A DNA stretch of 56,545 nucleotides from Candidatus Competibacteraceae bacterium (GTDB taxonomy: Bacteria; Pseudomonadota; Gammaproteobacteria; Competibacterales; JAHEDQ01). Positions 1,080-56,318 of this stretch are shown in pieces (within the stretch, counting starts at the first letter, position 1; each line of letters begins with the position of its first letter). The stretch lies in contig JAHEDQ010000003.1 of assembly GCA_024641125.1 (NCBI GenBank), positions 1-56,545 on the forward strand. The letters run 5' to 3'. The position numbers and the translations under genes were made by a program. The notes below the pieces were generated by a model. It saw only the letters and a program-made list of their open reading frames with translations, was not told the origin of the DNA and made no database searches.

Positions 1080-2150
1080 GTGAAACGCTACAGCATCGCC
1101 GTTCTGCCCGGCGACGGGATCGGCCAGGAAGTCATGCCCCAGGGTATTCGGGTGCTGGATGCCGTCGCCGGGCGCTTTGGCATCGAACTCGATTGGGCGC
1201 ATTTCGATTGGAGTTGTGAGACCTATCACAACACCGGCCGGATGATGCCGGAGGACGGACTCGACCGTCTGGCACGGCACGACGCGATCTATCTCGGCGC
1301 GGTGGGATTTCCCGGGGTCCCGGACCATGTATCACTCTGGGGTCTATTGATCCCCATTCGACGCACCTTTCAGCAGTATATCAATCTCCGCCCGGTACGC
1401 ATGCTGCGCGGTATGTCCAGCCCGTTGCGGGATCGAACGCCGGCAGACATCGATTTTTACGTGGTGCGGGAGAATAACGAGGGCGAGTACTCGGAAATTG
1501 GTGGGCGTCTGTACCAGGGCACCGACGCTGAAATGGCGCTGCAGCAGAATGTGTTTACCCGCATGGGGGTCGATCGGGCGCTCAGATTCGCCTTCGATCT
1601 GGCCCAGTCACGCCCGGCCCGGCACCTCACCTCGGCCACCAAATCCAACGGCATTATTCACACCATGCCCTTTTGGGACGAGCGGGTGGCCGAAATGGCC
1701 AGCCAGTACCCCGATGTGCGCACGGACCAGTACCACATCGATATTCTGACCGCACAGTTCGTGCTCCATCCGGACTGGTTCGACGTGGTGGTGGGCAGCA
1801 ACCTGTTCGGGGATATTCTGTCCGATCTCGGGCCCGCAGTCGCCGGCACCATAGGCGTTGCGCCCTCGGCAAACCTCAATCCCGAGCGCATCGCACCGTC
1901 CATGTTTGAGCCGGTGCATGGCTCCGCCCCGGACATCGCCGGGCGCGGCATCGCGAACCCGATCGGTCAGATCTGGTCCGGGGCCATGATGCTGGCCCAC
2001 CTGGGTCACGAGGACGCCGCCAAGGCCATAGAGCTGGCCATCGAGGACGTGCTGGAAGAGGGGTCCACACGCACCCCGGACCTGGGTGGCACGGCCGACA
2101 CCGAAGCCTTGGGCGCCGCCATCGCCGATCGGGTGGCGTCAGCGGACTGA
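1080..2150 (+). CDS. dmlA: tartrate dehydrogenase/decarboxylase or D-malate dehydrogenase (isocitrate/isopropylmalate dehydrogenase family)
   Basis: 356-aa ORF with a GTG start 7 nt after AGGAGG (1067-1072). It is collinear by eye with E. coli DmlA/YeaU: IAVLPGDGIGQEV, DFYVVRENNEGEYS, TSATKSNG, NLFGDILSDLGPAVAGTIGVAPSANLNPE, EPVHGSAPDIAG. Confidence 0.85.
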   Translation: MKRYSIAVLPGDGIGQEVMPQGIRVLDAVAGRFGIELDWAHFDWSCETYHNTGRMMPEDGLDRLARHDAIYLGAVGFPGVPDHVSLWGLLIPIRRTFQQYINLRPVRMLRGMSSPLRDRTPADIDFYVVRENNEGEYSEIGGRLYQGTDAEMALQQNVFTRMGVDRALRFAFDLAQSRPARHLTSATKSNGIIHTMPFWDERVAEMASQYPDVRTDQYHIDILTAQFVLHPDWFDVVVGSNLFGDILSDLGPAVAGTIGVAPSANLNPERIAPSMFEPVHGSAPDIAGRGIANPIGQIWSGAMMLAHLGHEDAAKAIELAIEDVLEEGSTRTPDLGGTADTEALGAAIADRVASAD

Positions 2151-2170: not shown

Positions 2171-2337
2171 AGGGAGCCGCTGATCTATTCCTGAACGTGC
2201 ATCTTGGGATTGAAAGGCACACCTTCAGCGTTGCAAATCTTGGCAATAGTAATGACTATTACCCGCGATCTGCGCCTTCAAGTTGCACATTTCACCCTCC
2301 AATCTGCTTGATCCAGAATAAATCAGAGACTCCCTGG
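2171..2337 (+). mobile_element. MITE-like hairpin element, copy A (full length, TIR about 20 bp)
   Basis: Left end AGGGAGCCGCTGATCTATTC; reverse complement of the right end GGGAGTCTCTGATTTATTC. The two halves are imperfect reverse complements of each other. The same sequence recurs at 4586-4754, 39049-39128, 49228-49396 and 53875-54042. It sits between the convergent stops of dmlA and the 2390-3265 gene. Confidence 0.8.
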
Positions 2338-2389: not shown

Positions 2390-3265
2390 TCAGGAACCTG
2401 CGGCGCCCGCTGCCGGCGGTGGCATCATCGGCCCAGGCCCGTATCCAGGACCCGGACCATAACCAGGCGCCATACCGCGCCCGGGGCCGTAACCGGGACC
2501 CCATTGCGGCCCTGGACCAGGCCCATAGCCATACCCCGGGCCATAGCCGGGACGAGGTCCGGCGGCCGGTCCAGAATAGGGTCCGTAACCGGGTCCGGGC
2601 CCGAGGCCGCCGCCAGCTGGGCCGTAGGCCTGCGTGCGGGCCCGCCGCGCCTCGAAACGCTGTTCCATCTCAGCCCGCCGGGCCTCGAAAAACGCGTCTT
2701 GCTCCTCGGCGTCCATGGCGGCGAATCGAGCCCGTTCGGCCTCGATGTCGGCGCGCATCCTGTCAGCCTCGTCACGCATCTGCTGGTGACGCTCGATCAT
2801 TTCAGCCGTGCGCTGCTCCGCCTGCTCACGCATGGTCTGGTAACGCTGAACCATTTGTTCTTCCATCAGCTTAGCCTGGCGCACCTGCTCTTCCCGGGCC
2901 TGCGCCAACATCTCTTCGTAGGCACCCGGCAGACCTGCACGGCGCTCTTCGGCTTGTTCGAGCATTTGCTGGTGGAACTTGGCCTGTTCAGCAGCCCGCT
3001 GCTCGGTGAGTTCAAGCATCTCCTGGTAGCGCTTGGCGCTGTCCTCGGCAAATCGCTGTTGCATGGCCGCGTGATGCTCTGCCATGTAGGCCTGTCTCTC
3101 TTCCCCACTCAGGGAATGCATCTTGGCCATGTGGGCGGTCCGTTCCGCCTGCGTCATCATAGCGCCGGCTTGGCCGTGGCCGGCTTGCGTTTCTGCGACG
3201 ACGGATTGCCCCGCCATCAGGAAAGCCGCAGTCGCAGCGGCGATTAGTGGTTTTTTGAACATCAC
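2390..3265 (-). CDS. secreted coiled-coil protein with a C-terminal Gly-Pro-Tyr low-complexity tail
   Basis: 291-aa ORF. Signal peptide MMFKKPLIAAATAAFLMAGQSVVA. About 190 aa of E/Q/R/A/M-rich heptad-like sequence, then a PGYGPGYGYGPGPGPQWGPGYGPGRGMAPGYGPGPGYGPGP tail. The opposite-strand ORFs are low-complexity mirror artefacts. Confidence 0.7.
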   Translation of the reverse strand: MMFKKPLIAAATAAFLMAGQSVVAETQAGHGQAGAMMTQAERTAHMAKMHSLSGEERQAYMAEHHAAMQQRFAEDSAKRYQEMLELTEQRAAEQAKFHQQMLEQAEERRAGLPGAYEEMLAQAREEQVRQAKLMEEQMVQRYQTMREQAEQRTAEMIERHQQMRDEADRMRADIEAERARFAAMDAEEQDAFFEARRAEMEQRFEARRARTQAYGPAGGGLGPGPGYGPYSGPAAGPRPGYGPGYGYGPGPGPQWGPGYGPGRGMAPGYGPGPGYGPGPMMPPPAAGAAGS

Positions 3266-3300: not shown

Positions 3301-3837
3301 TCACCAGGGCGCCATGTTGTTCATAAAATTCATCGGCCGGGACACGTTGTGCAGATTCCAGCTCATGGTGGCCACATCCTGTCGCATCAAGTGCATGGCT
3401 GCGGTCATGGACTCCATACTGGCGGCCATCCCGAGCATCGTGCCGGACTCCTCGTCGACACCGGCGGCGACCCGATCCATATCCGCCGCCACCCGATTCA
3501 GATCACCCGCCACCGCAGAAAAGTTTGCGGCGATGGACTCCATCCTGCCGGTGCTTTCCGCAATGCTGTCCATGTAGGCGATCTGGATCGAAATCGCGTC
3601 CATCCGATCCGCGATACGCGACACGCTGTCGGTCAGGCTGTAGACCAGATAGAACCCATAGGCGGCGAGCACGATAAAGGCGACCAGAGAAGGATAGACA
3701 ATCAGCTCCCACCGCCGGGCGCTGGCCTCGAAGGTGCGGGAAAACTGGTCCATGCATTCCGCCAGACCCTGCTCCGGACCCGGTTGCGGCAACGCGTGCC
3801 GACCGTCCTTGAACTGTTGTGTGGTTGTGTCCGACAT
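3301..3837 (-). CDS. single-pass membrane protein with Met/Asp-rich repeats (function unknown)
   Basis: 178-aa ORF with GAGGA upstream of the ATG. One TM helix (WELIVYPSLVAFIVLAAYGFYLVYSL). Then repeated ..RMDAISIQIAYMDSIAESTGRMESIAANF..DMDRVAAGV..MESMTAAMHLM.., ending in PMNFMNNMAPW. Confidence 0.6.
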   Translation of the reverse strand: MSDTTTQQFKDGRHALPQPGPEQGLAECMDQFSRTFEASARRWELIVYPSLVAFIVLAAYGFYLVYSLTDSVSRIADRMDAISIQIAYMDSIAESTGRMESIAANFSAVAGDLNRVAADMDRVAAGVDEESGTMLGMAASMESMTAAMHLMRQDVATMSWNLHNVSRPMNFMNNMAPW

Positions 3838-3944: not shown

Positions 3945-4577
3945 TCACGGACGGGTTGTCCTGATGGTGTTGATTTCCCGGGCCAGGGTCTGGCCCCCCT
4001 GAGGATCCAGTCCGCCCACGATGGCCACCATGTGCATGGCTTGACCAAATCGTCTCAAACGGGCCAGATTCAACGCCGCTTCCCGGTAGACGCCAGCCGC
4101 GTCTCGCCAACGCCCCTGTGCGAAGTAGATGTTGCCGAGTTCTCCGGCGGGGTTGGGATCTCCCGGTCTTTGCTCCATCAGGCGCTGATAGAGAACTTCG
4201 GCCTGGGTGTACTCCTGCCGCCAATAGGCCTGACGGGCCATGGCCAGCCCATCCTCGGACACATTGCGTGCCGGCGCGGGCTCCGGCAATGACGGCAGAC
4301 CCGCACCGTACACGGGTCCATAGGCTTGAGGCTGCGCTTGAAACGATTGCACCGCGGCCGGTTCCGTTCCGGTGGTTTGCATGATTTGCCGCTGGGCCCG
4401 TTCAGCCGCTGCGATTTCCTCCGGGCTGAGTGGGCGATAAACCGGCGATTCATCCGGCGCGGTCGCGGCTTCAGCAAAACACGATGCCGACGCCAACACA
4501 CCGGCAAGCAGACTCACCGCGCAACAGGCAAGGCTCTGCGCCCTGTGGGAACATCCATGCACTGGGCTTTCGCTCAT
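3945..4577 (-). CDS. secreted TPR-repeat protein
   Basis: 210-aa ORF with an N-terminal hydrophobic signal (SLACCAVSLLAGVLASASCFAEA). The C-terminal half is TPR-like (ARQAYWRQEYTQAEVLYQRLMEQRPGDPNPAGELGNIYFAQGRWRDAAGVYREA). Confidence 0.6.
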   Translation of the reverse strand: MSESPVHGCSHRAQSLACCAVSLLAGVLASASCFAEAATAPDESPVYRPLSPEEIAAAERAQRQIMQTTGTEPAAVQSFQAQPQAYGPVYGAGLPSLPEPAPARNVSEDGLAMARQAYWRQEYTQAEVLYQRLMEQRPGDPNPAGELGNIYFAQGRWRDAAGVYREAALNLARLRRFGQAMHMVAIVGGLDPQGGQTLAREINTIRTTRP

Positions 4578-4585
4578 ATCGCGTT

Positions 4586-4754
4586 CTCCCTGGGGCGCCT
4601 CTGGTTTATTCTGGACGAATCAGATTGGAGGGTGAAATGTGCAGCTTCAAGGCGCAGATCGCAGGTCATAGTCGTTCTATTGCCAAGATCTGCAACGATG
4701 AAGCTGTGCATTTGAATCCCAAGGTGCAGGTTCATGAATAGATCAGAGGATCCC
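4586..4754 (-). mobile_element. MITE-like hairpin element, copy B (full length, inverted relative to copy A)
   Basis: Its reverse complement aligns end to end with copy A (GGGATCCTCTGATCTATTCATGAACCTGCACCTTGGGATTCAAATGCACAGCTTCATCGTTGCAGATCTTGGCAATAG...CACCCTCCAATCTGATTCGTCCAGAATAAACCAGAGGCGCCCCAGGG). One end overlaps the ParA stop codon (4754-4756). The other end lies 9 nt from the TPR gene ATG. Confidence 0.8.
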
Positions 4755-5404
4755 TAAATCGGGGCCAGTCCGGGATACAGATCCCGGGCGAGCGTATCGA
4801 ATTCCACCGCCGCTTTACTGCGCCGCGCCATTTCATACACCGCCAGACCCTCGCTGAGCGATCTGCGATAAACCGTCCGGTTGCAGAGCCGATGGGGCAG
4901 CAGATGGACCCCGCCCATCATGCCCAAGGCTTCCACTGTCTCATCGGATTCGCGAATCTGGCGATGGGTATCCGCTCGATTGACGAAAGCAAGCACTTCG
5001 ATCCGACGCCCGTCCGGCACCGCCTTGCGCACAATGCTGAGGAACCGCTGGGTCGCCCACACATCCGCCTGGCTCGGCGGAACCGGGATCACCACGCGAT
5101 CGGCAACCTCGATGGCCGACTGCATGGCCGCGATGTTTGCCGCCCCTACATCCACCAGAACCTCGCCGGCGAAGGCCTGGAGCTGTTTTCCGTTGACCTT
5201 GTGCAGTTGATGCACGGTCAGAGCAGGCTCGTGGCCATCCTCGCACCGTACCTGGTTGACATCGGTCAAAGTGCACTGGGGATCCAAGTCATAGGCGACC
5301 ACCGCTTCGGAATGCTGCGCCAGCCATACGCCAAGATTGAAAGCCAGCGTGCTCTTTCCAGACCCGCCCTTAAGATTGCCGATCACCGTGATCACGCCTT
5401 TCAA
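4754..5404 (-). CDS. orphan ParA/MinD-family P-loop ATPase
   Basis: 216-aa ORF. It has the deviant Walker A VIGNLKGGSGKST and overall ParA-like architecture. No parB or parS is recognisable nearby. Confidence 0.85.
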   Translation of the reverse strand: MKGVITVIGNLKGGSGKSTLAFNLGVWLAQHSEAVVAYDLDPQCTLTDVNQVRCEDGHEPALTVHQLHKVNGKQLQAFAGEVLVDVGAANIAAMQSAIEVADRVVIPVPPSQADVWATQRFLSIVRKAVPDGRRIEVLAFVNRADTHRQIRESDETVEALGMMGGVHLLPHRLCNRTVYRRSLSEGLAVYEMARRSKAAVEFDTLARDLYPGLAPI

Positions 5405-6414: not shown

Positions 6415-6867
6415 TTACTGGGCGGGCTGTGCCTGAGGCTGCGGCTGTTGCGGCGCGGGCGCACCGTATCCAGGCGGTGCATAACCCGGGGCCGGAGCGC
6501 CGTAGCCATAGCCGGGTGCACCATAACCGGGTGCACCATAACCATAGCCCGGGTAACCGTAACCAGGCGCACCATAGCCGTAGCCCGGATAGCCGTAGCC
6601 GGGGTAGCCGTAGCCGTAGCCCGGCTGGCCATAACCCCGACCGTAGCCGCTGCCGGTTCCGTGGCCGCTGAAGCCCATGTTGAAGCTGCCGTCGCCCATC
6701 ATGTCGCCCAGGCCGTTACCCCAGCCCGGACCACCCCAACCGGGTCCACCCCAGCCAGGACCGCCCCAGCCCGGACCGCCCCACTGAGCCTGGGCGGAGG
6801 ACAAGGGCAGGGCCATGGCGCCGGCAATCGCGGCGGCAAGAATCGCTTTCTTGAAATTGCTCATCAC
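6415..6867 (-). CDS. secreted Gly/Tyr/Pro repeat protein resembling sulfur-globule envelope proteins (Sgp-like)
   Basis: 150-aa ORF. Signal peptide [27 protein letters not shown], then (WGGPG)x4, then [27 protein letters not shown], then about 12 (P)GYGY(G/A)(A)P units. The composition and the GDG..FNM..SG.G.GSG.GRGYG block match my recollection of purple-sulfur-bacterial SgpA/SgpB. Confidence 0.7.
6721..6783 (-). repeat. four tandem 15-nt coding repeats (WGGPG) that differ only at synonymous positions
   Basis: The minus strand reads TGGGGCGGTCCGGGC TGGGGCGGTCCTGGC TGGGGTGGACCCGGT TGGGGTGGTCCGGGC TGG. All four units encode WGGPG. Confidence 0.9.
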
Positions 6868-30570: not shown

Positions 30571-32028
30571 ATGAAAGCGCCAACCCCGGTTGACCCCGGT
30601 CGTAGGGCACGGCTCACGGTCTATCAGTACACCGGGCTCATTTTCGGCATCGGCGCGCTGATGCTCACTGCGCTGGCCTTGTTCACCGCCCGGGAGGTGC
30701 AGCAGTTCAATACCCTGTCCGAGCAGAGCCGGCACACAGCGGCCCGTCGGGATCTTGATCAGGCGGTGCAGACGTTGCTGGCGGATGCCCGCGGCATACT
30801 GCGGGAAGTGACCCTGTGGGACGAGACCTCAAGGCAGATCGAGAACCCGGGCACCTATCAGTTCTGGTGGCGCAACACCCTGATGAACCCGGCGCGAGTG
30901 CCGCACTATGTTCAGGCCATGGAGGTGTACGACGCGGATGGCAACAGTCTGAACCAGGTCAAGGAGACCCCGATGCCGGAATCGGTGGCCGGTCCCGGCG
31001 CCTATGTCAGTTGGGACGGCTACGGCGACAGCCTGTTTCAGGTGGTTCCGATTCTGGACGCCCGCGGCAACTGGCCACCAATCGGATTTCTGGGCGTGCG
31101 GATCTCTCTGCTTCTGGCCATCGCCGACCTGTATGAATTCGATCATCTGGTTGGCGACAGCCTGGAATTCGATCTGCTGTCAGACGAACAGCTTGCGCCG
31201 GATCAACTCACCGAACGCACGACCTATCGCTTGCGACCCCATTCGGAATTGCAGGGACTGGTAGCAGCGGTCAATCAGGGCACGTTCCGTCTGGTGGCGC
31301 TGAACATGCTAATACTGATTCTGGGGGTATGGGGGTTGCACGCGCTGATCGCCCGGCCGCTGCACCGTCTGGAACGCGAGGTATCGCGCCTGGACTCCGA
31401 CAAGGAAATCTCATTAGCCCAATTTCCGCCGTTTCGGGTTCGCGAGCTCGACCAGCTGGGAAAAACAATCGACCGCTATCACAGCGCATTGAGTGAGATG
31501 GCGGAAGACCTGGATCGCAAGAACGCGGAGTTGTGGAGTCTGGCACACCTGGACCCACTGACCGGCGTTCGCAACCGACGGGCATTTGAAGAGGACTGGG
31601 AAAAAATCCTGATCGGTTCGCATGATCAGACTCTGGCGGTGAGCTTTATCATGTTCGATTGCGACCAGCTCAAATCGATCAATGATGCATTCGGCCACGA
31701 AACCGGCGATCAGGTCATTCGCACCGTTGCCGACCAACTGTCCGCACAACTGCCTGCGGGGGCCCATCTGTACCGGTTGGGCGGTGACGAATTCGCCACC
31801 GTGCTGTGCGGTGCCGATGCAGATCAGGCCAAGGCCCTGGCCATGCGCTGCGAAACAGCCCTGGCCAGTCAGTCGGTTCACGGCCTGGAACTGGATGAGC
31901 CGCTCACAATCAGCACCGGCGTGGCCCAGCACCCAGGCGGTGACCGGGCCGCGCTGGAAAAGCTGCCGCGGGAAGCCGATGTGGCCATGTACCGGTCCAA
32001 ACGCTCCAATCGAGTGGCCAAGGCTTGA
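30571..32028 (+). CDS. membrane-anchored diguanylate cyclase (GGDEF)
   Basis: 485-aa ORF with two TM segments flanking a periplasmic-type sensor region. C-terminal GGDEF domain (RLGGDEF, ..DCDQLKSINDAFGHETGD..). Confidence 0.85.
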   Translation: MKAPTPVDPGRRARLTVYQYTGLIFGIGALMLTALALFTAREVQQFNTLSEQSRHTAARRDLDQAVQTLLADARGILREVTLWDETSRQIENPGTYQFWWRNTLMNPARVPHYVQAMEVYDADGNSLNQVKETPMPESVAGPGAYVSWDGYGDSLFQVVPILDARGNWPPIGFLGVRISLLLAIADLYEFDHLVGDSLEFDLLSDEQLAPDQLTERTTYRLRPHSELQGLVAAVNQGTFRLVALNMLILILGVWGLHALIARPLHRLEREVSRLDSDKEISLAQFPPFRVRELDQLGKTIDRYHSALSEMAEDLDRKNAELWSLAHLDPLTGVRNRRAFEEDWEKILIGSHDQTLAVSFIMFDCDQLKSINDAFGHETGDQVIRTVADQLSAQLPAGAHLYRLGGDEFATVLCGADADQAKALAMRCETALASQSVHGLELDEPLTISTGVAQHPGGDRAALEKLPREADVAMYRSKRSNRVAKA

Positions 32029-32478
32029 CCAGCGCGCGGGCAAGGCTCAAGCTCCCGCACCGGAACCTAGGAAGGTCTGATCAATTGCAGCGACCGCGCC
32101 GGGGTTTTTGCGCTCTCTTGTACAAGGCGCAGCGAGCGCAGTTGGCCCATGGCAAATAGGTGAGTTGCCAATGAGCGAGGTGTAGCGCGCTACCAAGGGC
32201 GCAAAGGCCGGCCCCGCTGGGGTTTCGCCCACAAAAGCGCATCTGCCTCATTTCCCGGCTTGGCCATAGAATAATTATGGCGCTGCGCCGGAGGCCGTGT
32301 GTTTGCGCCCTTGTGGACCGAAACGCGATTCGTATCATTTGACCAGACCTTATCCTAACAACAGGGTGAATGTCCGTTGCCTTGCTACACTGGTGACAGC
32401 GGCTCGTTATGCCCGCGACCGTCAGGATGTGCGGTCGACCAAGCTTCCGGATGGAATCCGGCGCATGGCAGAAGAACT

Positions 32479-33420
32479 GTGGTAGAAGAAATCAAAAACG
32501 GCACCCGCAGGACGCTGAATGGCAGTCTGTGCGTTTACTTCGATGGCTACTGGATACGCTGCTACATACCGCCAAAGGACACGCTGGCGGAACGTAAGCG
32601 TCTGATCGATAACCTGACGCGGCGCACATTCCACCACACCGAGCCTGGCATCAACACGCCGGGTGATCGTCTCGAACTTGCGCGCGCGGCGCATGATCGC
32701 GAGACAGAACCCAAGCGAAAACGGATCAAGGCTGCGATGCTCGCCGGTGCCCTCTTTAACCGGGCAACGGATATTTTCACCTCGGTGGTAGACCTGGCCG
32801 AGCGCGGCGTAACCGTGAGCCAGGACAATGAACTGATGCGCGAGTGCGGTGCCTGTTTTCAGGAGGCCCTGGCACTGGGCAAACAGGTCAAACACTACAG
32901 CGGACAAGAAGGTATAGACGAGCTCTGGGGCGAGCCCTTCAAGGCGTTTACCCTGCCGGTGGAGAAATTCTATGAGAGCCGCTACATCAAAATCGCCCAG
33001 AGCATGCGCGACATCGACCGGGTGGCGGACCGGCTGGTCGATCTGTTCGACAACGATCCCAGTTTCAGCGGCCTGACGGCGCTGATAAGGACCTACGCAG
33101 GCGCTGCCAAAAGCGAATGCGAGACCATGAAGAGCGATGTCGATATTTTTGATATCTGGGCCAACTTTACGGCCTCGGGAGAAGCCGTTGTCGAGTTCCA
33201 ACCCAGAACGGTGGAGTCCATGTCCAAACGCAGGATTCGGCGCATCATGGAGGGCCGCACCCTGGTCCGAGAGGGTAAGGAACTGATTGCTTACGTGGCC
33301 GGTGCGCGGGTGCCCATGCCCAAGAGCACCCAGGCTTTTCTGGATCGATGCGAAGCTTATCAGCAGGCTGCGGTCCGAATTGGCGACGACCCGGCCACCT
33401 CCAGTCTGGCGGCGCGCTAG
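32479..33420 (+). CDS. conserved-looking hypothetical protein (no family recognised)
   Basis: The frame is open from 32377 and has no in-frame ATG before residue about 110. I chose the GTG at 32479. Amino-acid composition is normal (K/E/D/I/F/Y), whereas the 360-aa antisense ORF is R/G/A-rich. Confidence 0.55.
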   Translation: MVEEIKNGTRRTLNGSLCVYFDGYWIRCYIPPKDTLAERKRLIDNLTRRTFHHTEPGINTPGDRLELARAAHDRETEPKRKRIKAAMLAGALFNRATDIFTSVVDLAERGVTVSQDNELMRECGACFQEALALGKQVKHYSGQEGIDELWGEPFKAFTLPVEKFYESRYIKIAQSMRDIDRVADRLVDLFDNDPSFSGLTALIRTYAGAAKSECETMKSDVDIFDIWANFTASGEAVVEFQPRTVESMSKRRIRRIMEGRTLVREGKELIAYVAGARVPMPKSTQAFLDRCEAYQQAAVRIGDDPATSSLAAR

Positions 33421-39048: not shown

Positions 39049-39128
39049 GAGGCGCCTCTGATTTATTCGTGAAGGTGTATCTTGGGACTGAAATGCACAG
39101 CTTCGGCGTTGCCCGGCTTGGCCGCGAC
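39049..39128 (+). mobile_element. MITE-like element, copy C (left half only)
   Basis: GAGGCGCCTCTGATTTATTCGTGAAGGTGTATCTTGGGACTGAAATGCACAGCTTCGGCGTTGC... aligns with the left arm of copies A, B and D. Similarity then fades 6 nt before the fabR stop, and there is no right arm. Confidence 0.65.
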
Positions 39129-39134
39129 CCAGCC

Positions 39135-39770
39135 TCATTCAGGCCCGGGCGAAATCTGCTCGCGACGCGCCATGGCCTCGGCACCCAGCGCGATCATACG
39201 CAACTGCTGAACCATTTTCTGCGTAACATCTTGAACATTTTCCTCTTTATTATCGATGAACTCTAACCCTTCATTAAACACGATTGTCACCATAGACTCA
39301 GCCACGATGGAAATGTCGCTCATGAGAATACCCCGGTCTCGGCACTCCCGTTCCAGATCACACGCCAACTCGTCAATGAAGTGGTCGATCTCCCGCCGAA
39401 TGGCCCGTCGAAAAGCTGGCGATCCCACCGCCCGCTCCCGCGACAGCAGATAGAACAGATTTGCGTTTCCGATCAGAAACTGAATAAAGGTGTCCACCGA
39501 CGCGCGAACCACCCCACCTTCGGTACCGAACCGCTGGCGCGCCTCCCGCATCCGCCGCCTCAATTCCGTACCGGCCTCGTCCACCAGCGCCAGACCCAGC
39601 GCCTCCAGATCCGGGAAGTGGCGATAAAATGACGTGGGTGCAACCCCGGCCTCACGCGCCACCTCACGCAGACTCAGATTGCTAAACCCACGTTCCGCGC
39701 TGATTTGCCCCAAAGCCGCGTCGATCAAGGCCCGACGTGTTCGTTCCTTCTGTTGTGCCCGGACAGCCAT
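39135..39770 (-). CDS. fabR: TetR-family repressor of unsaturated fatty-acid synthesis, FabR
   Basis: The ATG at 39770 gives [52 protein letters not shown].... This is collinear with E. coli FabR ([20 protein letters not shown]...[20 protein letters not shown]) through to ..LQLRMI...RREQ. Confidence 0.85.
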   Translation of the reverse strand: [211 protein letters not shown]

Positions 39771-40055
39771 CGGTCCCCCGTCTTGGCATCCGCCCGACAT
39801 ATCGCGGGTGTCACCAACAATTGCGATTCAGAATACGCGCTGCAACGGACTGCAGGCGTGCTCCCCCAGATATCGTGCCCATCGATCCACGGCTCGGCCG
39901 CAAAGAACTTGACCGGGTGAGGCGATGTCGCTAGATTCAGCGAACACTTGTACGCTGAAACCCCTCTGGCGCACAAGAAAAAGACTGCTGTATGGGGCAA
40001 TTTCAACGCCACCCGCCGGTGAGGCGGGCCAAAAAGCGGATCAGAGGACCTAGGG

Positions 40056-47289: not shown

Positions 47290-48179
47290 GCCGGCCTCTC
47301 CCCGCAAACCGGGAAGCTGCCGGCCAAAGCACGGGCAACGGCCTCGGGTCGTTCCATATGCACATGGTGTCCCCCATCCACATGGTGGATCTGCAGAGAC
47401 GGTGTGCAGGCGCAGCGGGCGGCCATCTGCGGACGATCCACCAGATAACCACGGCGCGCCAGGACCAACTGCACCGGGCACAGCACACGGGCGAGATAGG
47501 CAGCAACCTGATCTTCGCTGAAATAGAATGGCGAACGAACCCGCAACTTGGGATCACTGCGCCAAGCGAAGCCGCCTCGGTTCGGCCGCAGGCTCCTCGC
47601 CACCAGCAATCTCGCGTCCTCCAGCCGCAGATCACCAGCCCGGCTACGCGCCAGCGCAGCGGTTTCGATATCCGGGTATTGATGGGATACCCGACCGGGT
47701 AAAGCCAGCATCCGGGTGACCGATTCCGCCGCCTGAGCCGGGCCGTCTTCGGGCTTGGCGGTCAGCGGGCCGTAGCCGTCAATCAACCCCAGGCTCAGCA
47801 CCCGATCAGGGATCAGCGCGGCAACGAACAGCGCCACCGAGGCGCCCAGTGAATGACCCAGTATATGAAAGCGGCCCCAGCCCAAGGCATTCGCGGCGGC
47901 CACCACGTCCTGAACGTGGTCGAGAAAATGGTAGTGAGTGCCGGGCGGGCGGTGTGCGGACTGTCCGTGCCCGGCCAGATCCATGGCGATGAGTCGGCGG
48001 CCCTGAAAAAACGGAGCCAGCGGGACAAAACTGGCAGCGTTGTCCAACCACCCGTGCAGCGCCAACACCGGCGTCTGGTCTGGCGCGCCCCAGGCCAGGG
48101 CCGACAGATCCAGATAGGCTGTTTCGAGCACCAGGGAGCCCGGGGCAACGACTTCAATCGCTTTTGAAGTCAGCCTCAT
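47286..48179 (-). CDS. alpha/beta-fold hydrolase
   Basis: The ATG at 48179 overlaps the methyltransferase stop (ATGA). Contains HGWLDNAASF and the nucleophile elbow GHSLGA. Confidence 0.75.
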   Translation of the reverse strand: MRLTSKAIEVVAPGSLVLETAYLDLSALAWGAPDQTPVLALHGWLDNAASFVPLAPFFQGRRLIAMDLAGHGQSAHRPPGTHYHFLDHVQDVVAAANALGWGRFHILGHSLGASVALFVAALIPDRVLSLGLIDGYGPLTAKPEDGPAQAAESVTRMLALPGRVSHQYPDIETAALARSRAGDLRLEDARLLVARSLRPNRGGFAWRSDPKLRVRSPFYFSEDQVAAYLARVLCPVQLVLARRGYLVDRPQMAARCACTPSLQIHHVDGGHHVHMERPEAVARALAGSFPVCGERPA

Positions 48180-48844
48180 TGCGGCGTCGCCACGCCCCAG
48201 GAGTTGAACGCGAGCGGCCTGAACCAGCCGGCCATTCCAGGGAAATATCCCTGCTCCAACCGATCGATCCGAAAACCGCTTTCCCGCAACATTTCCGGCA
48301 CATTCCGGTTCAAATGACAGCCCCCGGCAATCGCCCGCCACGGTGGCGTCAGCCGGTGCTGCCAACCCTGCACACTGGGCTCGGGTGCCAGTCCGTGCTC
48401 GCTGAACAAAAGCCGGCCGCCGGGTTTGATCACGCGGCGCATCTCGCCCAAGGCCTGTGTCACATCCGGAATGCTGCACAAGGTGTACGTCACCAGAACG
48501 GTATCGATACTGTCGGTCTCCATGGGAATCTCTTCCCCGGAACATCCGATGAGTTCCACGTCCAGATCCAATCCCGCGATCCGCGCCAGCGCTCTGCCCT
48601 GCATCTCCACTCCGGGGTCCAGTCCCCACAAACGCTCGATCCGATCCACAGCGTAATAAGGCAGATTGAGCCCGGTGCCAAACCCAACTTCCAGGACCCT
48701 TCCCGTGGCTAAAGGCACGACGGCACGCCGGTACTGTTCCAATACGGGCAGGGCGCACACCCGATCCAGCACGGCTGGCATCACAACCCTCCGATACAGA
48801 CTCAAACCACGCCACCCCGTTGAGTTCGAATCATCCGCACACAC
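48176..48844 (-). CDS. class I SAM-dependent methyltransferase
   Basis: 222-aa ORF with a GTG start. SAM motif VLEVGFGTGLN, and RVIKPGGRLLF. Confidence 0.75.
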   Translation of the reverse strand: MCADDSNSTGWRGLSLYRRVVMPAVLDRVCALPVLEQYRRAVVPLATGRVLEVGFGTGLNLPYYAVDRIERLWGLDPGVEMQGRALARIAGLDLDVELIGCSGEEIPMETDSIDTVLVTYTLCSIPDVTQALGEMRRVIKPGGRLLFSEHGLAPEPSVQGWQHRLTPPWRAIAGGCHLNRNVPEMLRESGFRIDRLEQGYFPGMAGWFRPLAFNSWGVATPQ

Positions 48845-49227: not shown

Positions 49228-49396
49228 CAGGGAACCTCTGTTCTGAAAGTGAAACTGCATCTTGGGCCGGAACTGCACAGCTTCATCGTTGCAGATCTTG
49301 GCAATAGAACAGCAATTACCCGCGATCTGCGCCTTGAATGTCCATATTTCACCCTCCAATCTGCTTCGCCCAGAAAAAAATCAGAGGCTCCCTGGG
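49228..49396 (+). mobile_element. MITE-like hairpin element, copy D (full length)
   Basis: CAGGGAACCTCTG...GCATCTTGGGCCGGAACTGCACAGCTTCATCGTTGCAGATCTTGGCAATAG...CGCGATCTGCGCCTTGAATG...TTTCACCCTCCAATCTGCTTCGCCCAG...ATCAGAGGCTCCCTGG. Confidence 0.8.
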
Positions 49397-49601: not shown

Positions 49602-50372
49602 GTGATGAGCATCTTGATTCAACACATCAGCAACGTGATTTGTGTGATCAGGTCAAGGCTTGCCAAGTTGTTGGCTTGGAAACGCCAGCATGACCTGAAC
49701 CTTCTTTGGGAGCAGTCGTCGCGTCGGATACACGAGCCAAGCCGCAGTCTCAAAGGACGTGGCAGCAACGCGACTGGGGTGGTTTGCGACGTGGGCCGAT
49801 ACACTGAAGTTGCCCAGGCGGTTGATCGATGCCATGAAGCGTTCGGCGGTTTGGACATCCTGGTCAACAACGCCGGTGTCATAGAGCCCATCGCGCATCT
49901 TGCAGACTCCGATCCGGAACAATGGGGACGTGTCGCGGATGTGAACTACAAGGGCGTCTACCACGGGCTTAGAGCGGCCATACCGGTCATGCTGGCACAA
50001 GGATCGGGCGTTATCGTCAATATCAGTTCTGGCGCCGCCACCGGTGCACTGGAAGGCTGGAGCCACTACTGCTCAAGCAAAGCCGCGGCACTCTCACTCA
50101 CCCGCTGCGCCGACAAGGAGTACCGCGCCCACGGCATCCGGGTACTCGGACTCAGCCCCGGTACCGTTGCCACCGACATGCAGATCGCCATCAACGAATC
50201 CGGTATCAACCCGGTCAGCCAACTCGATCCGTCGGTCCACATCTCGGCCGTTTTGGCGGCCCGGGCTGTGGCATGGCTGTGCACCGCGGCGGCGGCCAAG
50301 TTCGCTGGCACCGGTTTGTCACTCAGGGACGAGGATGTCCGCAGGAAAGTCGGACTGATCGCAGACGCATGA
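49602..50372 (+). CDS. SDR-family oxidoreductase whose N-terminal cofactor-binding glycine motif is missing (possibly decaying)
   Basis: 256-aa ORF. It has NNAG, the S..YxxxK catalytic context (SSGAA..YCSSKAA) and an SDR C-terminus. However, where TGxxxGxG is expected it reads LIQHISNVICVIRSRLAKLLA. Confidence 0.55.
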   Translation: MMSILIQHISNVICVIRSRLAKLLAWKRQHDLNLLWEQSSRRIHEPSRSLKGRGSNATGVVCDVGRYTEVAQAVDRCHEAFGGLDILVNNAGVIEPIAHLADSDPEQWGRVADVNYKGVYHGLRAAIPVMLAQGSGVIVNISSGAATGALEGWSHYCSSKAAALSLTRCADKEYRAHGIRVLGLSPGTVATDMQIAINESGINPVSQLDPSVHISAVLAARAVAWLCTAAAAKFAGTGLSLRDEDVRRKVGLIADA

Positions 50373-50689
50373 AAATCCCAGTGTCCCATCCCACAAGTTC
50401 GTTGCATCTCAGCAGGGCGATAAGTGCCCGGTCCCCAGGCGGGCGGGCGCAGGACTGTACGGCGTTCATTCAAGCGCGCCCAACATCGCGCGGGTGGGTG
50501 CTTATCGCCTTGCCCGTTGAGAGCGCCCCAGATCCACCACTGCAAGCCGCGGTTACGAAGGCACGGCAGGCACTGTCAATCATCGAAAAGGGCGCCGCGA
50601 CGAAATGAGGATGCGCAGCGGACAGTACCGTACAATACGAGGCATCCGGGGGCGCTCTGCCCTTCCCGGCCCAATACGAGAAAGGTTTC

Positions 50690-52324: not shown

Positions 52325-53740
52325 TTAGTGCATGACCTTTCCTGACGCTGCCGCAGCCTCGCCTGCCCGTCGAATCCGCTCGATCTCCTCAGACACGGGG
52401 AACAACCGCGTTCCGTAGAATCGCTCGGTCCCGCAGTTGATCGATTCTAAACGCAATTCGACCAGGCGCACCGAACCGTCGGCGCATATCTGGCGCCCAG
52501 CCAGGGCTTCAATTCCGCTACCGGGGTCAACTCGCGCGCTCAAGCGCTCCGACAGCGTTTGTACTGAGTGCTCGGTGTAATCGGTTAATTTCGTTCCGAC
52601 CAATTCCCGGAGCGATCGACCTACGGCCTGACAGGCTCTGGGATTGGCGTAAACCAGCGCCAGCCCCTCGACCTCGAATATCATAGTTTCCAGGTCAGTC
52701 TCCGCCATCAACCTTGCCAACTCTTCGCCGGCTCGAACCTGACCTTCCCACAACGTCAAATCCGATACCATGGCCACCGTGCCGATTACCCGGCGCTTTG
52801 CATCACGAAGCAGAGAAAGCGACAAATGTCCGCTGAATCGGTGCCGCGCGTGGTCAACCATGGGCAAAGTGGCTTCATACCAACCCTGCTTCCAGAGGTC
52901 ACGATACACCTCCCCGAGACGCGCTCGGACATTCAAATCGCTGGGATAGATCATGGATAAGTGCTGACCGATAGCGGCCTGGGCGGGCAGGCCGAACAGC
53001 CTTTGCGCGCCTTGATTCCAACTCACCACCCGCTCTTCCAGGTCGCAGACAATGACGGCGCTGTGAATCTGGTCGATGATCTGCGCCTGCTGCCGGGACA
53101 AATCGTCTCCCCGCAGCCGCGTCGTCATATCCCGAGCCTCAAACAGTACCAGCACGACCTCATCGTCCCTGTCGCGTATCGGTTTCAGCGACAAATCCAC
53201 GTGCGCAAGTTGACCATCCCGTCCACGGAGTTCCGCGGCAAACCGGGCCACTTGGCCCTTGACCGCGCCGCGCAGGGCCGTCTGCAACTGGTGTTGGGTA
53301 CGGTCAGAGCCGAACCACCAGTGGGTGCGCCAGAAAGGTCTGCCGACAACATCATCCTGTTCCAGGCCGGCGAAATCGAGCATGGTCTGATTGACCTCGA
53401 TCAAGTGCCCGTCCGGCGCCAGCAGGGCCATATGCTGGAATGCTGAATCAAACGTGGCATGGAATCGACGCTGGCTGTCCAACAAATCACTGTGCGCGTC
53501 CTGCAAGCGCCATGCGCGATGCCGTGCCTGCCTCAGGCGCACCATCGCGATCACCGACAACACCAGAACCACGCCCAGTCCAACAACCCACCATGGCCCC
53601 AGACGAACTGAAGCAAGATAAGCCTCGCCACCCGCCGGCGGCCGAACCAGTGCATACAAAAGACCACTGGCCGCCAGAAACAAAGCCAGAATCGTCAAAA
53701 GGAATAATGCGCCATCCAAGTGGCGGCCATTTTCATGCAT
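52325..53740 (-). CDS. membrane-anchored triple-PAS protein with no recognisable output domain
   Basis: 471-aa ORF with two N-terminal TM segments followed by three PAS-like units (..FHATFDSAFQHMALLAPDGHLIEVNQ.., ..IIDQIHSAVIVCDLEERVVSWNQGAQRLFG.., ..MIFEVEGLALVYANPRACQAVG..). It ends without a kinase, GGDEF or HTH domain. Confidence 0.7.
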   Translation of the reverse strand: MHENGRHLDGALFLLTILALFLAASGLLYALVRPPAGGEAYLASVRLGPWWVVGLGVVLVLSVIAMVRLRQARHRAWRLQDAHSDLLDSQRRFHATFDSAFQHMALLAPDGHLIEVNQTMLDFAGLEQDDVVGRPFWRTHWWFGSDRTQHQLQTALRGAVKGQVARFAAELRGRDGQLAHVDLSLKPIRDRDDEVVLVLFEARDMTTRLRGDDLSRQQAQIIDQIHSAVIVCDLEERVVSWNQGAQRLFGLPAQAAIGQHLSMIYPSDLNVRARLGEVYRDLWKQGWYEATLPMVDHARHRFSGHLSLSLLRDAKRRVIGTVAMVSDLTLWEGQVRAGEELARLMAETDLETMIFEVEGLALVYANPRACQAVGRSLRELVGTKLTDYTEHSVQTLSERLSARVDPGSGIEALAGRQICADGSVRLVELRLESINCGTERFYGTRLFPVSEEIERIRRAGEAAAASGKVMH

Positions 53741-53874
53741 CGGTCTGGCAGACTCCCGTTACGCTGGATCAGCCAAGATATCACTCTACACAGTTTACAA
53801 TTGGGCCCGCCGCCCATCCCGCTCGCGCCGAAGTTTGGATGATCTGGCGACCACAATATAGTCGTTGGGCCCTC

Positions 53875-54042
53875 AAGGGAGCCTCGGATCTATTCGTGAA
53901 CGTGCATCTTGGGATTGAAATGTGCAGATTCAAGGCGCAGATCCTGGGTAATAGTTGTTATATTACCGAGATTTGGAACGATGACGCTGTACGTGTCCCC
54001 CTCCAATCTGCTTCGCCCGGAATGAATCAGCGGCTCCCAAGG
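53875..54042 (+). mobile_element. MITE-like hairpin element, copy E (outer arms oriented as in copy A, central segment inverted)
   Basis: AAGGGAGCCTCGGATCTATTCGTGAACGTGCATCTTGGGATTGAAA | TGTGCAGATTCAAGGCGCAGATCCTGGGTAATAG..ATATTACCGAGATTTGGAACGATGACGCTGTACGTG | TCCCCCTCCAATCTGCTTCGCCCGGAATGAATCAGCGGCTCCCAAGG. Confidence 0.8.
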
Positions 54043-54245: not shown

Positions 54246-56318
54246 TTAGATCTGATCCATCATGCTCTGCTGTTCCTTAACCACGCCCGGATTGGACAGC
54301 AACCAGACCTTGAACTCAGCGCCGGCACCCACCCTGGAGTTCACGGTGAGGTTTCCGCCGTATCGTCTGATCAAGCCATAGCTGATGGACAAACCAAGGC
54401 CGGTGCCCTGTCCTTCCGGCTTGGTGGTATAGAACGGATCGAACAAACGCGAACACACACGGCTCGGGATGCCGGGACCGTTATCGCGAACGGAGATCAC
54501 GACGCCCCGGTCGCCCCAGTCCGCGGCGCTGATTTCGATCCTGCCCCGTCCATGTGAGACCGCGTGACAAGCATTGACCATCAGGTTCACCAGCACCTGC
54601 TGCAATTCCTGGCGGTTGATGGCAATCGTTCGCTCGGTCCGGATGGATGTGGTTACCTTGACTGATCCACGCTTTACGGCATGGGCCACCAATCCCAAGG
54701 TGTCCGTGATCACCTCATCGATGGACACGTCGTCGATGCAGCCCGCGTACTCCGCAGGCCGGGCGTATTGCAGCAGATTGTTGATGATCTCACGGATGCG
54801 ATAGACCTGGGCGACGATCAAGTCGACCTCTTCGGAAACCGGTTCGATGGCCGGCCCCAACTCCGACACCAGCAGATCGAGATTGCCCAAAATCACGGCC
54901 GTGGGATTGTTGATCTCGTGGGCCACGCCGGCAGTCAACTCACCGATGGCGGCAAGCTTCTCCGCCATCACCAGTTGCTGCCGGGTCTGCTGCAAAAGCG
55001 CCACGGTTCTTTCCAGATCGGCGTTTTTCTCACGCAGTTCGCGGGTGCGCTGATCCACCTTGAGTTCCAACTCATCTGCGGCACGCTGAATCTGCCGATT
55101 GCGCTGCTGAAGAAGGTCGAGCATGACATCGAACTCGCGGGCCAATTCCCCAATCTCATCGCGGGATGCCAGCTTGCCGATGCGTCTGTCCTCGCCCCCG
55201 CGGGTCGCCCGAACCACCGTGCTCATTTCCTCTATGGGGCGAAAAATTGACTTGGCGCCGTAGAAGGCAAGGGCCGCGGAAAACCCCATGAAGGCCAAAA
55301 AAATCAGCGATATCAATTGGATGGTTCGCACCAGGCTGGCCCGAAACGGAGCCTCCAGGAATCCAGCGTACAGCATGCCGACACGTTCGCCGACAACGTC
55401 ATAGATCGGCTCATAACCCGACACATACCAATCGTTCACCACAAAAGCGCGGTTGATCCAGCGATCCCCCTGCTCCAGGACCTGGGTTCGCACTTCCGCC
55501 GAAACGCGGGTACCCAAAGCCCGTTCCCCCGGTCGCACCGGCACGTTGGTTGTGATGCGAACGTCGTCCAGAAACACGGTCACGGTGCCGAGGCTGTCCT
55601 CGGGCAAACTGCCCGGCCCGTAGACCAGATCCCGTATGGTGTCGACAATGGAGAAGTTGCTGTTCAGCAGCACCGCACCGTCCAACAGCGCGACCACGCG
55701 CCCACCAATGTCGGCGAGCGGATAAACCATGCGCATGGCCATCGCCCGATCCTCAAACGATCGCTGTATAGGCGTGGCCCTGGGCGTTTCCACAAGGGGA
55801 AGACGAACCATTGCGGCGAGTTCCGATGCGATGCCTGCCAGTTCATCGGGCCCGAACACCTGAATGCCGCTGACTGCCTCACCTGTTAGGGCGCGAGTAA
55901 GCTCACCGGGCAGATGAATCCCGCCGGCAAAATTCCGTTCCGGCGCACTCAGGTCTAAGCCGTCGAGATCCACCATGCGCAGATAAGCGAAACCGTGATT
56001 GCGGGCCAGATCATCGAGTTGGGCCTGTATCGCCCTGGTATCGCGATCAGCGAGATTGGAGCGAAAAAGATACGATTCACCAACACCGGCGAGGGTCGCC
56101 AAATAGTCCGCTCGGATTCGCGCGAACACGTCCTGAGCTACCGCAAGATCCGTGGCCACCTTGATGAACAACTGGTCGTATGTGGCTCTATCACTCCAGT
56201 AGACCGCCAAGCCAAGGGTGACGGGCATCACCAGCAGTATCGGAAACAAAACGAGCAGCAGAAGCTTGTAACGCAGGCTCCGCTCAACCCGGGCCACCAG
56301 GGGGAATCCCTTCAGCAT
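54246..56318 (-). CDS. sensor histidine kinase (periplasmic Cache-like domain, HAMP, HisKA, HATPase)
   Basis: The track ORF extends to 56456. The ATG at 56318 lies 17 nt after the upstream stop and gives MLKGFPLVARVERSLRYKLLLLVLFPILLV. H-box GVAHEINNPTAVILGN; G-boxes DNGPGI and GTGLGLSISYG. Confidence 0.85.
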   Translation of the reverse strand: MLKGFPLVARVERSLRYKLLLLVLFPILLVMPVTLGLAVYWSDRATYDQLFIKVATDLAVAQDVFARIRADYLATLAGVGESYLFRSNLADRDTRAIQAQLDDLARNHGFAYLRMVDLDGLDLSAPERNFAGGIHLPGELTRALTGEAVSGIQVFGPDELAGIASELAAMVRLPLVETPRATPIQRSFEDRAMAMRMVYPLADIGGRVVALLDGAVLLNSNFSIVDTIRDLVYGPGSLPEDSLGTVTVFLDDVRITTNVPVRPGERALGTRVSAEVRTQVLEQGDRWINRAFVVNDWYVSGYEPIYDVVGERVGMLYAGFLEAPFRASLVRTIQLISLIFLAFMGFSAALAFYGAKSIFRPIEEMSTVVRATRGGEDRRIGKLASRDEIGELAREFDVMLDLLQQRNRQIQRAADELELKVDQRTRELREKNADLERTVALLQQTRQQLVMAEKLAAIGELTAGVAHEINNPTAVILGNLDLLVSELGPAIEPVSEEVDLIVAQVYRIREIINNLLQYARPAEYAGCIDDVSIDEVITDTLGLVAHAVKRGSVKVTTSIRTERTIAINRQELQQVLVNLMVNACHAVSHGRGRIEISAADWGDRGVVISVRDNGPGIPSRVCSRLFDPFYTTKPEGQGTGLGLSISYGLIRRYGGNLTVNSRVGAGAEFKVWLLSNPGVVKEQQSMMDQI

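Follow-up and report, generated by a model that had tools for sequence, protein, structure and literature searches.

The question raised by this locus is what kind of element recurs in the gaps between genes of a 56,545-nucleotide contig of a Candidatus Competibacteraceae bacterium (JAHEDQ010000003.1, assembly GCA_024641125.1; the whole stretch is termed the window), and what has carried it there. The first-pass annotation, which worked from the letters of the DNA, had described a MITE-like family of hairpin-forming repeats at five places. A profile search of the whole window with nhmmer reveals five sites of the repeat and no more, and all five places were also recovered by a repeat search and a MAFFT alignment. 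Four of them hold full copies and one a left half of the same unit, a nearly perfect palindrome of 160 nt bounded by GGAGCCTCTGATCTATTC...GAATAAATCAGAGGCTCC. The pairwise identity of the window copies in the repeat search is ~65-88%. Two of the conserved blocks that had been pointed out, TTTCACCCTCCAATCTGCTT and GTGCATCTTGGGATTGAAA, were searched for at up to 3 mismatches; each matches four copies and nothing else in the window, against a chance expectation of 0.00-0.01 matches in dinucleotide-preserving shuffles. The copies are as follows, with the bounds given without the duplicated target bases.

2173-2333, plus strand: copy A, full, 161 nt; flanking 4-mers CTAG (2169-2172) and CTGG (2334-2337)
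4594-4753, minus strand: copy B, full, 160 nt; flanks in element orientation TTAG (4754-4757) and CCAG (4590-4593)
39051 to ~39128, plus strand: copy C, truncated, left arm only (model positions 14-84); preceded by TTGA
49231-49391, plus strand: copy D, full, 161 nt, with a diverged left end GGAACCTCTGTTCTGAAAG; flanks CCAG and CTGG
53878-54037, plus strand: copy E, full, 160 nt; perfect non-palindromic target-site duplication CAAG (53874-53877 and 54038-54041)
~53916-53990: the central ~76 nt of copy E, in opposite orientation to copy E's own termini

Three of the copies were said to lie close to stop codons, and this is the case for A, B and C. Copy A is situated between the 3' ends of two convergent genes, 1080-2150 (plus strand; isocitrate/isopropylmalate-dehydrogenase family) and 2390-3265 (minus strand), and its target-site duplication lies 18 nt past the TGA stop of the former. 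The TAG stop of the ParA-like gene 4754-5404 (minus strand) falls inside the TTAG flank of copy B, and a gap of 16 nt separates this copy from the downstream start codon (ATG) of the TPR gene 3945-4577 (minus strand). Copy C abuts the 3' end of the TetR gene 39135-39800 (minus strand), at a distance of 7 nt from the stop codon; the sequence past ~39128 resembles neither the family nor any other half copy. Copy D occupies a 757-nt gap between divergent methyltransferase and short-chain dehydrogenase genes (48176-48844, minus strand, and 49602-50372, plus strand), and copy E is placed between two minus-strand sensor genes, 52325-53740 and 54246-56318. Copy E had been matched to the family on its outer arms, which agrees with the inversion of its core: the core gives a local score of 56 in reverse and 14 in forward orientation, the sole such case among the 60 copies considered below. 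The element's inverted arms presumably allowed this flip, either by recombining with each other or through template switching between them.

No transposase domain was found among the 45 open reading frames of the window (Pfam, with frames lacking a hit rescanned at relaxed thresholds or against NCBIfam), so that the earlier statement that the family is accompanied by no transposase holds for the window. We also note that copies A (plus) and B (minus) stand in inverted orientation around three minus-strand genes, 2390-3265, 3301-3837 and 3945-4577, a layout like that of a composite transposon. On the plus strand, this segment has CTGG as both of its inner flanks and CTAG and CTAA as its outer ones. 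The first two of the enclosed frames, 2390-3265 and 3301-3837, were considered as transposases and gave nothing relevant in Pfam or NCBIfam.

The family extends well beyond the window. A first search pattern, TGCAYCTTGGGATTSAAAKG, is specific to the window subfamily, since most copies elsewhere read GGGACT; in one genome per species it gave one true match and eight chance matches. The true match belongs to an uncultured gammaproteobacterial MAG (L008) and shows 83% identity over the full length, with a 12-nt insert. A gapped pattern built from invariant columns retrieved 77 metagenome contigs, all of the JGI series Ga0316187-Ga0316196. A search with nhmmer over 887 kb then identified 114 sites, 97 of them full-length. 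With identical loci across samples merged, these represent 60 distinct genomic sites, spread over the window, a single MAG and 77 contigs from one JGI metagenome series; the count is pooled over however many genomes these sequences represent. The sites in independent metagenome and MAG contigs number 56 and support the MITE reading of the first-pass annotation. Copies other than the one by which a contig had been retrieved occur at ~1 per 50 kb in the fetched contigs. The window's own sites recur in none of the fetched contigs, and the repeat families alone are common to the window and these contigs, with the exception of the window's own Logan contig (L001). This indicates independent insertions in related organisms. 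The plasmid, phage and viral-contig collections gave no match, and the consensus element has none in 5,426 complete E. coli genomes (blastn, word size 11, E <= 0.01).

The consensus, GGAGCCTCTGATCTATTCGTGAAC...CCAGAATAAATCAGAGGCTCC, is 160 nt long. A 172-nt form arises from tandem duplication of the 12-nt motif GATCYGCSCCGC in the right inner arm. At one locus the form differs between samples, short in one and long in the other (L077 5156-5321 and L081 2711-2888), which suggests recurrent slippage or gene conversion between copies. Both forms lie within the size range of MITEs (about 50-800 bp), and a transposase gene would not fit in either. Identity to the consensus averages ~0.89 at the ends and 0.92-0.97 in the interior; with so small a deficit at the ends, the interior gives no clear indication of selection.

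The palindrome spans the whole element, with 59 Watson-Crick and 8 wobble pairs among 77 opposed consensus positions, and folding bears out the earlier suggestion that each copy can form one long hairpin. The terminal inverted repeats consist of GGAGCCTCTGATCTATTC and, at the right end in reverse complement, GGAGCCTCTGATTTATTC, and have the length by which MITEs are recognised (at least 10-15 bp). The inverted repeats reported in the first-pass annotation are real, but their extent needs correction: the element proper begins with GGAG, and the (C/T)TAG that precedes it is duplicated target. The architecture of the element suggests that a single ~80-nt transposon end was duplicated in inverse orientation, as opposed to a pair of ends enclosing an unrelated core. 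Half copies are found at 39051-39128 of the window, at L015 3560-3627 and at L067 5534-5613 (the same locus as L069 4926-5005). All of them keep the left arm, up to model position ~70-84, and have nothing in common beyond it, which points to repeated loss of one arm of the palindrome. Half copies were also considered as the ends of a longer element, a possibility rejected on the lack of any common sequence past ~80 nt.

In 17 of 58 copies the 4-mers directly outside GGAG...CTCC agree exactly. A stricter anchor leaves 48 flank pairs, of which 13 are identical and 30 in all show no more than one difference; random re-pairing, repeated 2000 times, gave 4.3 identical pairs on average and never more than 12. 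Of the 17 exact matches, ten are non-palindromic direct repeats, namely TTAG (three copies), CAAG (two, including copy E), CTGG, TGAA, CTAA, AAAG and CTCA; non-palindromic inverted flanks occur in only two copies. The preponderance of direct over inverted pairs, ten to two, identifies the flanks as duplications and not as an extension of the inverted repeat. Both flanks follow the consensus C/T-T-A-G/A (YTAR), with C or T in 48/58, T in 41/58, A in 42/58, and G or A in 53/58 at the successive positions. The element thus inserts at 5'-YTAR-3', mostly CTAG or TTAG, with duplication of 4 bp. The duplications are imperfect in all but 17 of the 58 copies, and the imperfect ones require mutation after insertion as the explanation.

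The comparison with empty sites that had been proposed earlier yielded no allelic example among the loci examined. It did yield one paralogous example (83% identity), in which ...GGGACA-CTAG-GGAAG... in L019 corresponds to ...GGGGCA-CTAG-element-CTAG-GGAAGG... in L055. The empty junction in L019 is a single CTAG that links a further repeat to a second MITE family, described below. A different pair, L019 1339-2200 and the reverse complement of L079 1290-2151, shows 99.8% identity on the right side of an element copy and no relationship on the left side; it is unusable as an empty site, being a recombination or a metagenome assembly chimera at the repeat. Copies also stand head to tail in tandem with one common CTAG (L067 8247-8596, the same locus as L069 1943-2292), and in L077 5082-5321 a partial copy lies directly beside a full one. 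Such arrangements come from insertion of one copy into the target already duplicated by another.

The position of the copies relative to genes was assessed with a codon-usage gene finder trained on the long open reading frames of these sequences. None of the 60 copies lies inside a predicted gene, and 624 of the 1233 YTAR sites outside the elements are coding; genic insertions are subject to purifying selection. Multiple dispersed copies, here at 60 sites and all intergenic, are a mark of MITEs. The density of YTAR is 0.9 per kb in coding and 4.0 per kb in non-coding DNA. Since YTAR is rare in the coding DNA of a genome of ~62% G+C and contains TAG or TAA, many of the tolerated targets are stop codons or lie just downstream of genes, and for this reason copies abut the 3' ends of genes with the stop intact. 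In 19 of the 60 copies the TAG or TAA stop codon of the neighbouring gene lies within the duplication, which exceeds the 12% expected from random use of non-disruptive YTAR sites. We attribute this excess, as a conjecture, to selection against insertions in 5' regions. Orientation is unbiased, with 28 sense and 26 antisense copies downstream of a gene, and the genes on either side form 15 divergent, 14 convergent and 25 tandem pairs.

A hairpin at so many gene ends could also be a structured RNA selected by the host, such as a 3'-end stabiliser, a target of RNase III/E, a terminator or a small RNA, rather than a selfish element. Many copies lie just past stop codons, and the antisense RNA folds ~22 kcal/mol better than the sense RNA in 58 of the 60 copies (means of -81 and -59 kcal/mol); for copy A the fold z-scores are -7.5 for antisense and -3.9 for sense. 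Correia and ERIC elements, moreover, are known to affect transcripts (PMC10969869). The asymmetry nevertheless reduces to 6 versus 2 G:U positions in the consensus (binomial p = 0.29), which all copies inherited from a common ancestor. RNAalifold on the MAFFT alignment missed the hairpin due to the 12-nt indel, and the hairpin was hence given by hand. With the hairpin supplied explicitly, 92.8% of the cells are paired, as against 92.2% after column shuffles. The 27 cells with double changes are within the 22-35 of controls in which the partners were slid by 1-3 columns, and ten of the 27 fall in a palindromic target column. The proposed check by folding or covariance model has accordingly upheld the hairpin and returned no covariation beyond the controls. 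The lack of orientation bias relative to the upstream gene further disfavours a structured RNA, as do the absence of a U-run after the hairpin and the results from Rfam, which gave no match at the gathering score for the window and none even at E <= 1 for 2100-2400 around copy A. As the covariation is within controls and the asymmetry is inherited, there is no evidence of structure kept by selection; selection at the RNA level was rejected, and a host-selected RNA is very unlikely. The pattern among the copies is that of neutral decay from a palindromic founder.

A related proposal is that the family, once spread, was co-opted by the host, with copies at stop codons serving as orientation-dependent modules for mRNA 3'-end or inter-cistronic processing and stability. 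It draws on the hairpins at or just after stops (19/60 versus 12%) and on the far greater stability of one strand as RNA, and is analogous to the roles proposed for ERIC and Correia. Such a role would be unlikely; copy B, between the ParA-like stop and the ribosome-binding site of the next gene, would be a test case for it.

The long hairpin-forming palindrome, the strictly intergenic siting and the many copies would also suit an element of the REP/REPIN type, spread on single-stranded hairpins by a RAYT (IS200/IS605-like Y1) transposase. Y1 transposition is not known to make target duplications, and direct 4-bp duplications are present here. The unit measures 160 nt rather than the 20-40 nt of a REP, the window holds no Y1 transposase domain, and the 5,426 E. 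coli genomes in which the consensus has no match do carry REP/BIME and ERIC. This origin is extremely unlikely.

The element is instead a genuine non-autonomous transposon (MITE), very probably moved in trans by an IS5-group DDE transposase encoded elsewhere. The MITE reading of the first-pass annotation is supported by the small size, the terminal inverted repeats, the 4-bp target-site duplications, the intergenic siting, the lack of coding capacity and the many diverged copies. The transposase, encoded elsewhere in the genome, would bind the two ends, excise the element and integrate it through a 4-bp staggered cut. Surviving copies are all intergenic and decay without selection for pairing. 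An autonomous partner would be expected to show the layout GGAGCCTCTGATCTATTC...N(700-1600)...GAATARATCAGAGGCTCC.

The attribution to IS5-family transposases as the most likely mobilising enzymes is based on target, duplication length and short end similarity only. In E. coli, IS5 duplicates 5'-YTAR-3', as judged from 220 reconstructed events (PMC5009759), and ISXo1 duplicates CTAG or TTAG (bioRxiv 10.1101/2023.04.27.538605). MITEPsy1 of P. syringae, a 100-nt element with the ends GGAAGGTCTGAAAAAGCC and GTATCCTCTGAAAAAGCC and a 4-nt duplication of CTAG or YTAA, is thought to derive from the IS5-family element ISPsy2 and was caught transposing (PMC3189936). The first-pass annotation could not place the terminal repeat in any IS family; the 4-bp YTAR duplication together with the GGAnnnTCTGA ends would match IS5-group elements (PMC5009759, PMC3189936). 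The ends of the element agree with those of MITEPsy1/ISPsy2 at 9 of the first 12 bases, a stretch too short for a statistical test. The end of IS5, GGAAGGTGCGAATAAG, begins with GGA like the ends of the element.

The second MITE family, of ~285 nt, is represented in the window at ~32070-32354, between the GGDEF gene 30571-32028 and the open reading frame 32479-33420. Further copies are located at L055 444-744 and 13554-13836, L040 3499-3783, L041 8350-8634, and L023 1568-1840 and 4936-5206. It resembles the 160-nt element in its 4-bp YTAR duplications, its related ends and its presence on the same contigs, and differs in its length, its unrelated interior and the lack of a whole-length palindrome. 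The first 12 bases of its ends, GGAAGGTCTGAACAATTG, are identical (12/12) to the left end of MITEPsy1, and 12 of 18 positions match between GGAAGGTCTGAACAATTG and the element end GGAGCCTCTGATCTATTC. Its copies are 81-86% identical, carry perfect 4-bp YTAR duplications and are often arranged back to back with the 160-nt element at a common CTAG; there is no Rfam match at E <= 1. The MITEPsy1-like ends and the YTAR duplications of this second family support the link to IS5.

A partner element was sought in several ways. No InsH-like open reading frame was detected at E <= 10 by phmmer among the six-frame frames of at least 80 aa in 887 kb, with E. coli InsH as the query; a single IS5 protein of this kind would miss distant subgroups of the IS5 family. 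Neither end occurs alone beside a long open reading frame, a fuzzy search for the ends giving truncated copies only. A scan of the 887 kb for inverted repeats spaced by 600-3500 bp returned pairs of MITE copies and a few 18-26-nt pairs without MITE-type ends.

Other IS families too make 4-bp duplications, IS701, IS1380 and ISH3 being examples of families with duplications of about 4 bp. There is a small chance that the MITE was mobilised by a transposase of such a family and not by one of the IS5 group, given that no partner IS was found in the 887 kb and that the similarity to IS5-group ends amounts to just 9/12 to 12/18 bases (PMC3189936). The exact YTAR target with a 4-bp duplication is, on the other side, the published signature of IS5, ISXo1 and MITEPsy1 (PMC5009759; bioRxiv 10.1101/2023.04.27.538605; PMC3189936), and a MITE family with canonical GGAAGGTCTGAA ends resides in the same genomes' contigs, uses the same targets and often lies back to back with the element at a common CTAG. 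Both considerations favour an IS5-group transposase.

A third repeat family, of ~167 nt, was also observed in the window at 50377-50543, where it follows immediately on the stop codon of the gene for the short-chain dehydrogenase (49602-50372). It recurs at L016 74-239, L019 1062-1226, L026 2309-2472 and L029 6990-7153. It folds strongly (-67.7 kcal/mol), and one of its ends reads ...GAACTTGTGGGAYGGGACACTAG. Its terminal CTAG is a recurrent insertion site of the 160-nt element, forming a left flank common to the copies in L019, L045, L055 and L065.

With regard to the host, the gene 6415-6867 (minus strand) matches the Pfam sulphur globule protein family PF17228 (E = 1.9e-8) and contains 36-nt tandem repeats at 6491-6638, reading ...GCCATAGCC... 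on the plus strand. The sulphur globule gene suggests that the host is a sulphur-storing, sulphur-oxidising gammaproteobacterium. The main value of the element lies in the annotation and population genomics of this uncultured sediment gammaproteobacterial lineage, whose intergenic regions are marked by the family and at least two co-resident repeat families. The family breaks or chimerises metagenome assemblies and could serve as a strain marker. It also supplies inverted repeats for rearrangements, as in copies A and B, which bracket three genes. The element reveals no new mechanism; it does illustrate cleanly how stop codons in a G+C-rich genome come to be occupied by a transposon that targets YTAR.

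ERIC/IRU and Correia (CREE/NEMIS) elements are likewise imperfect palindromes of 100-200 nt, intergenic, present in many copies and co-transcribed with their neighbours. ERIC is not known to have a transposase or a defined duplication, and the element described here has no match in E. coli genomes, where ERIC is present. Correia elements have been reported to undergo inversion (PMC10969869), which may be compared with the inverted core of copy E; they differ in their TA duplication, their promoters and their IHF site (PMC10969869).

Prokaryotic MITEs are defined as small elements without a transposase open reading frame, with terminal inverted repeats, a target-site duplication of 2-10 bp, dispersed intergenic copies and a cognate autonomous element (PMC11602168, PMC10969869). 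Four of these features are present here: small size without a transposase, inverted ends, the duplication and a large number of copies between genes. The element has in common with E. coli IS5 and with ISXo1 from Xanthomonas oryzae the 4-bp 5'-YTAR-3' duplication and a bias toward non-coding DNA (PMC5009759; bioRxiv 10.1101/2023.04.27.538605); these two differ from it in being autonomous, ~1.2 kb long and equipped with a DDE transposase gene. MITEPsy1 and its presumed parent ISPsy2 offer the closest parallel: MITEPsy1 has no open reading frame, and the pair combine a 4-nt duplication at CTAG or YTAA with GGAnnnTCTGA ends (PMC3189936). MITEPsy1 also resides in a gammaproteobacterium (P. syringae pv. 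phaseolicola), inside or next to other mobile elements. It is 100 nt long rather than 160 or 172 nt, its interior is not a whole-length palindrome, and outside the ends the two have no detectable similarity. Strain 1448A holds six copies of MITEPsy1, compared with the 60 pooled distinct sites here. Its transposition was demonstrated experimentally and its parent IS is known, whereas the present element is known from sequence alone. Judged against the libraries searched, the family is undescribed; it is an element of a well-known kind, nearest in behaviour to MITEPsy1.
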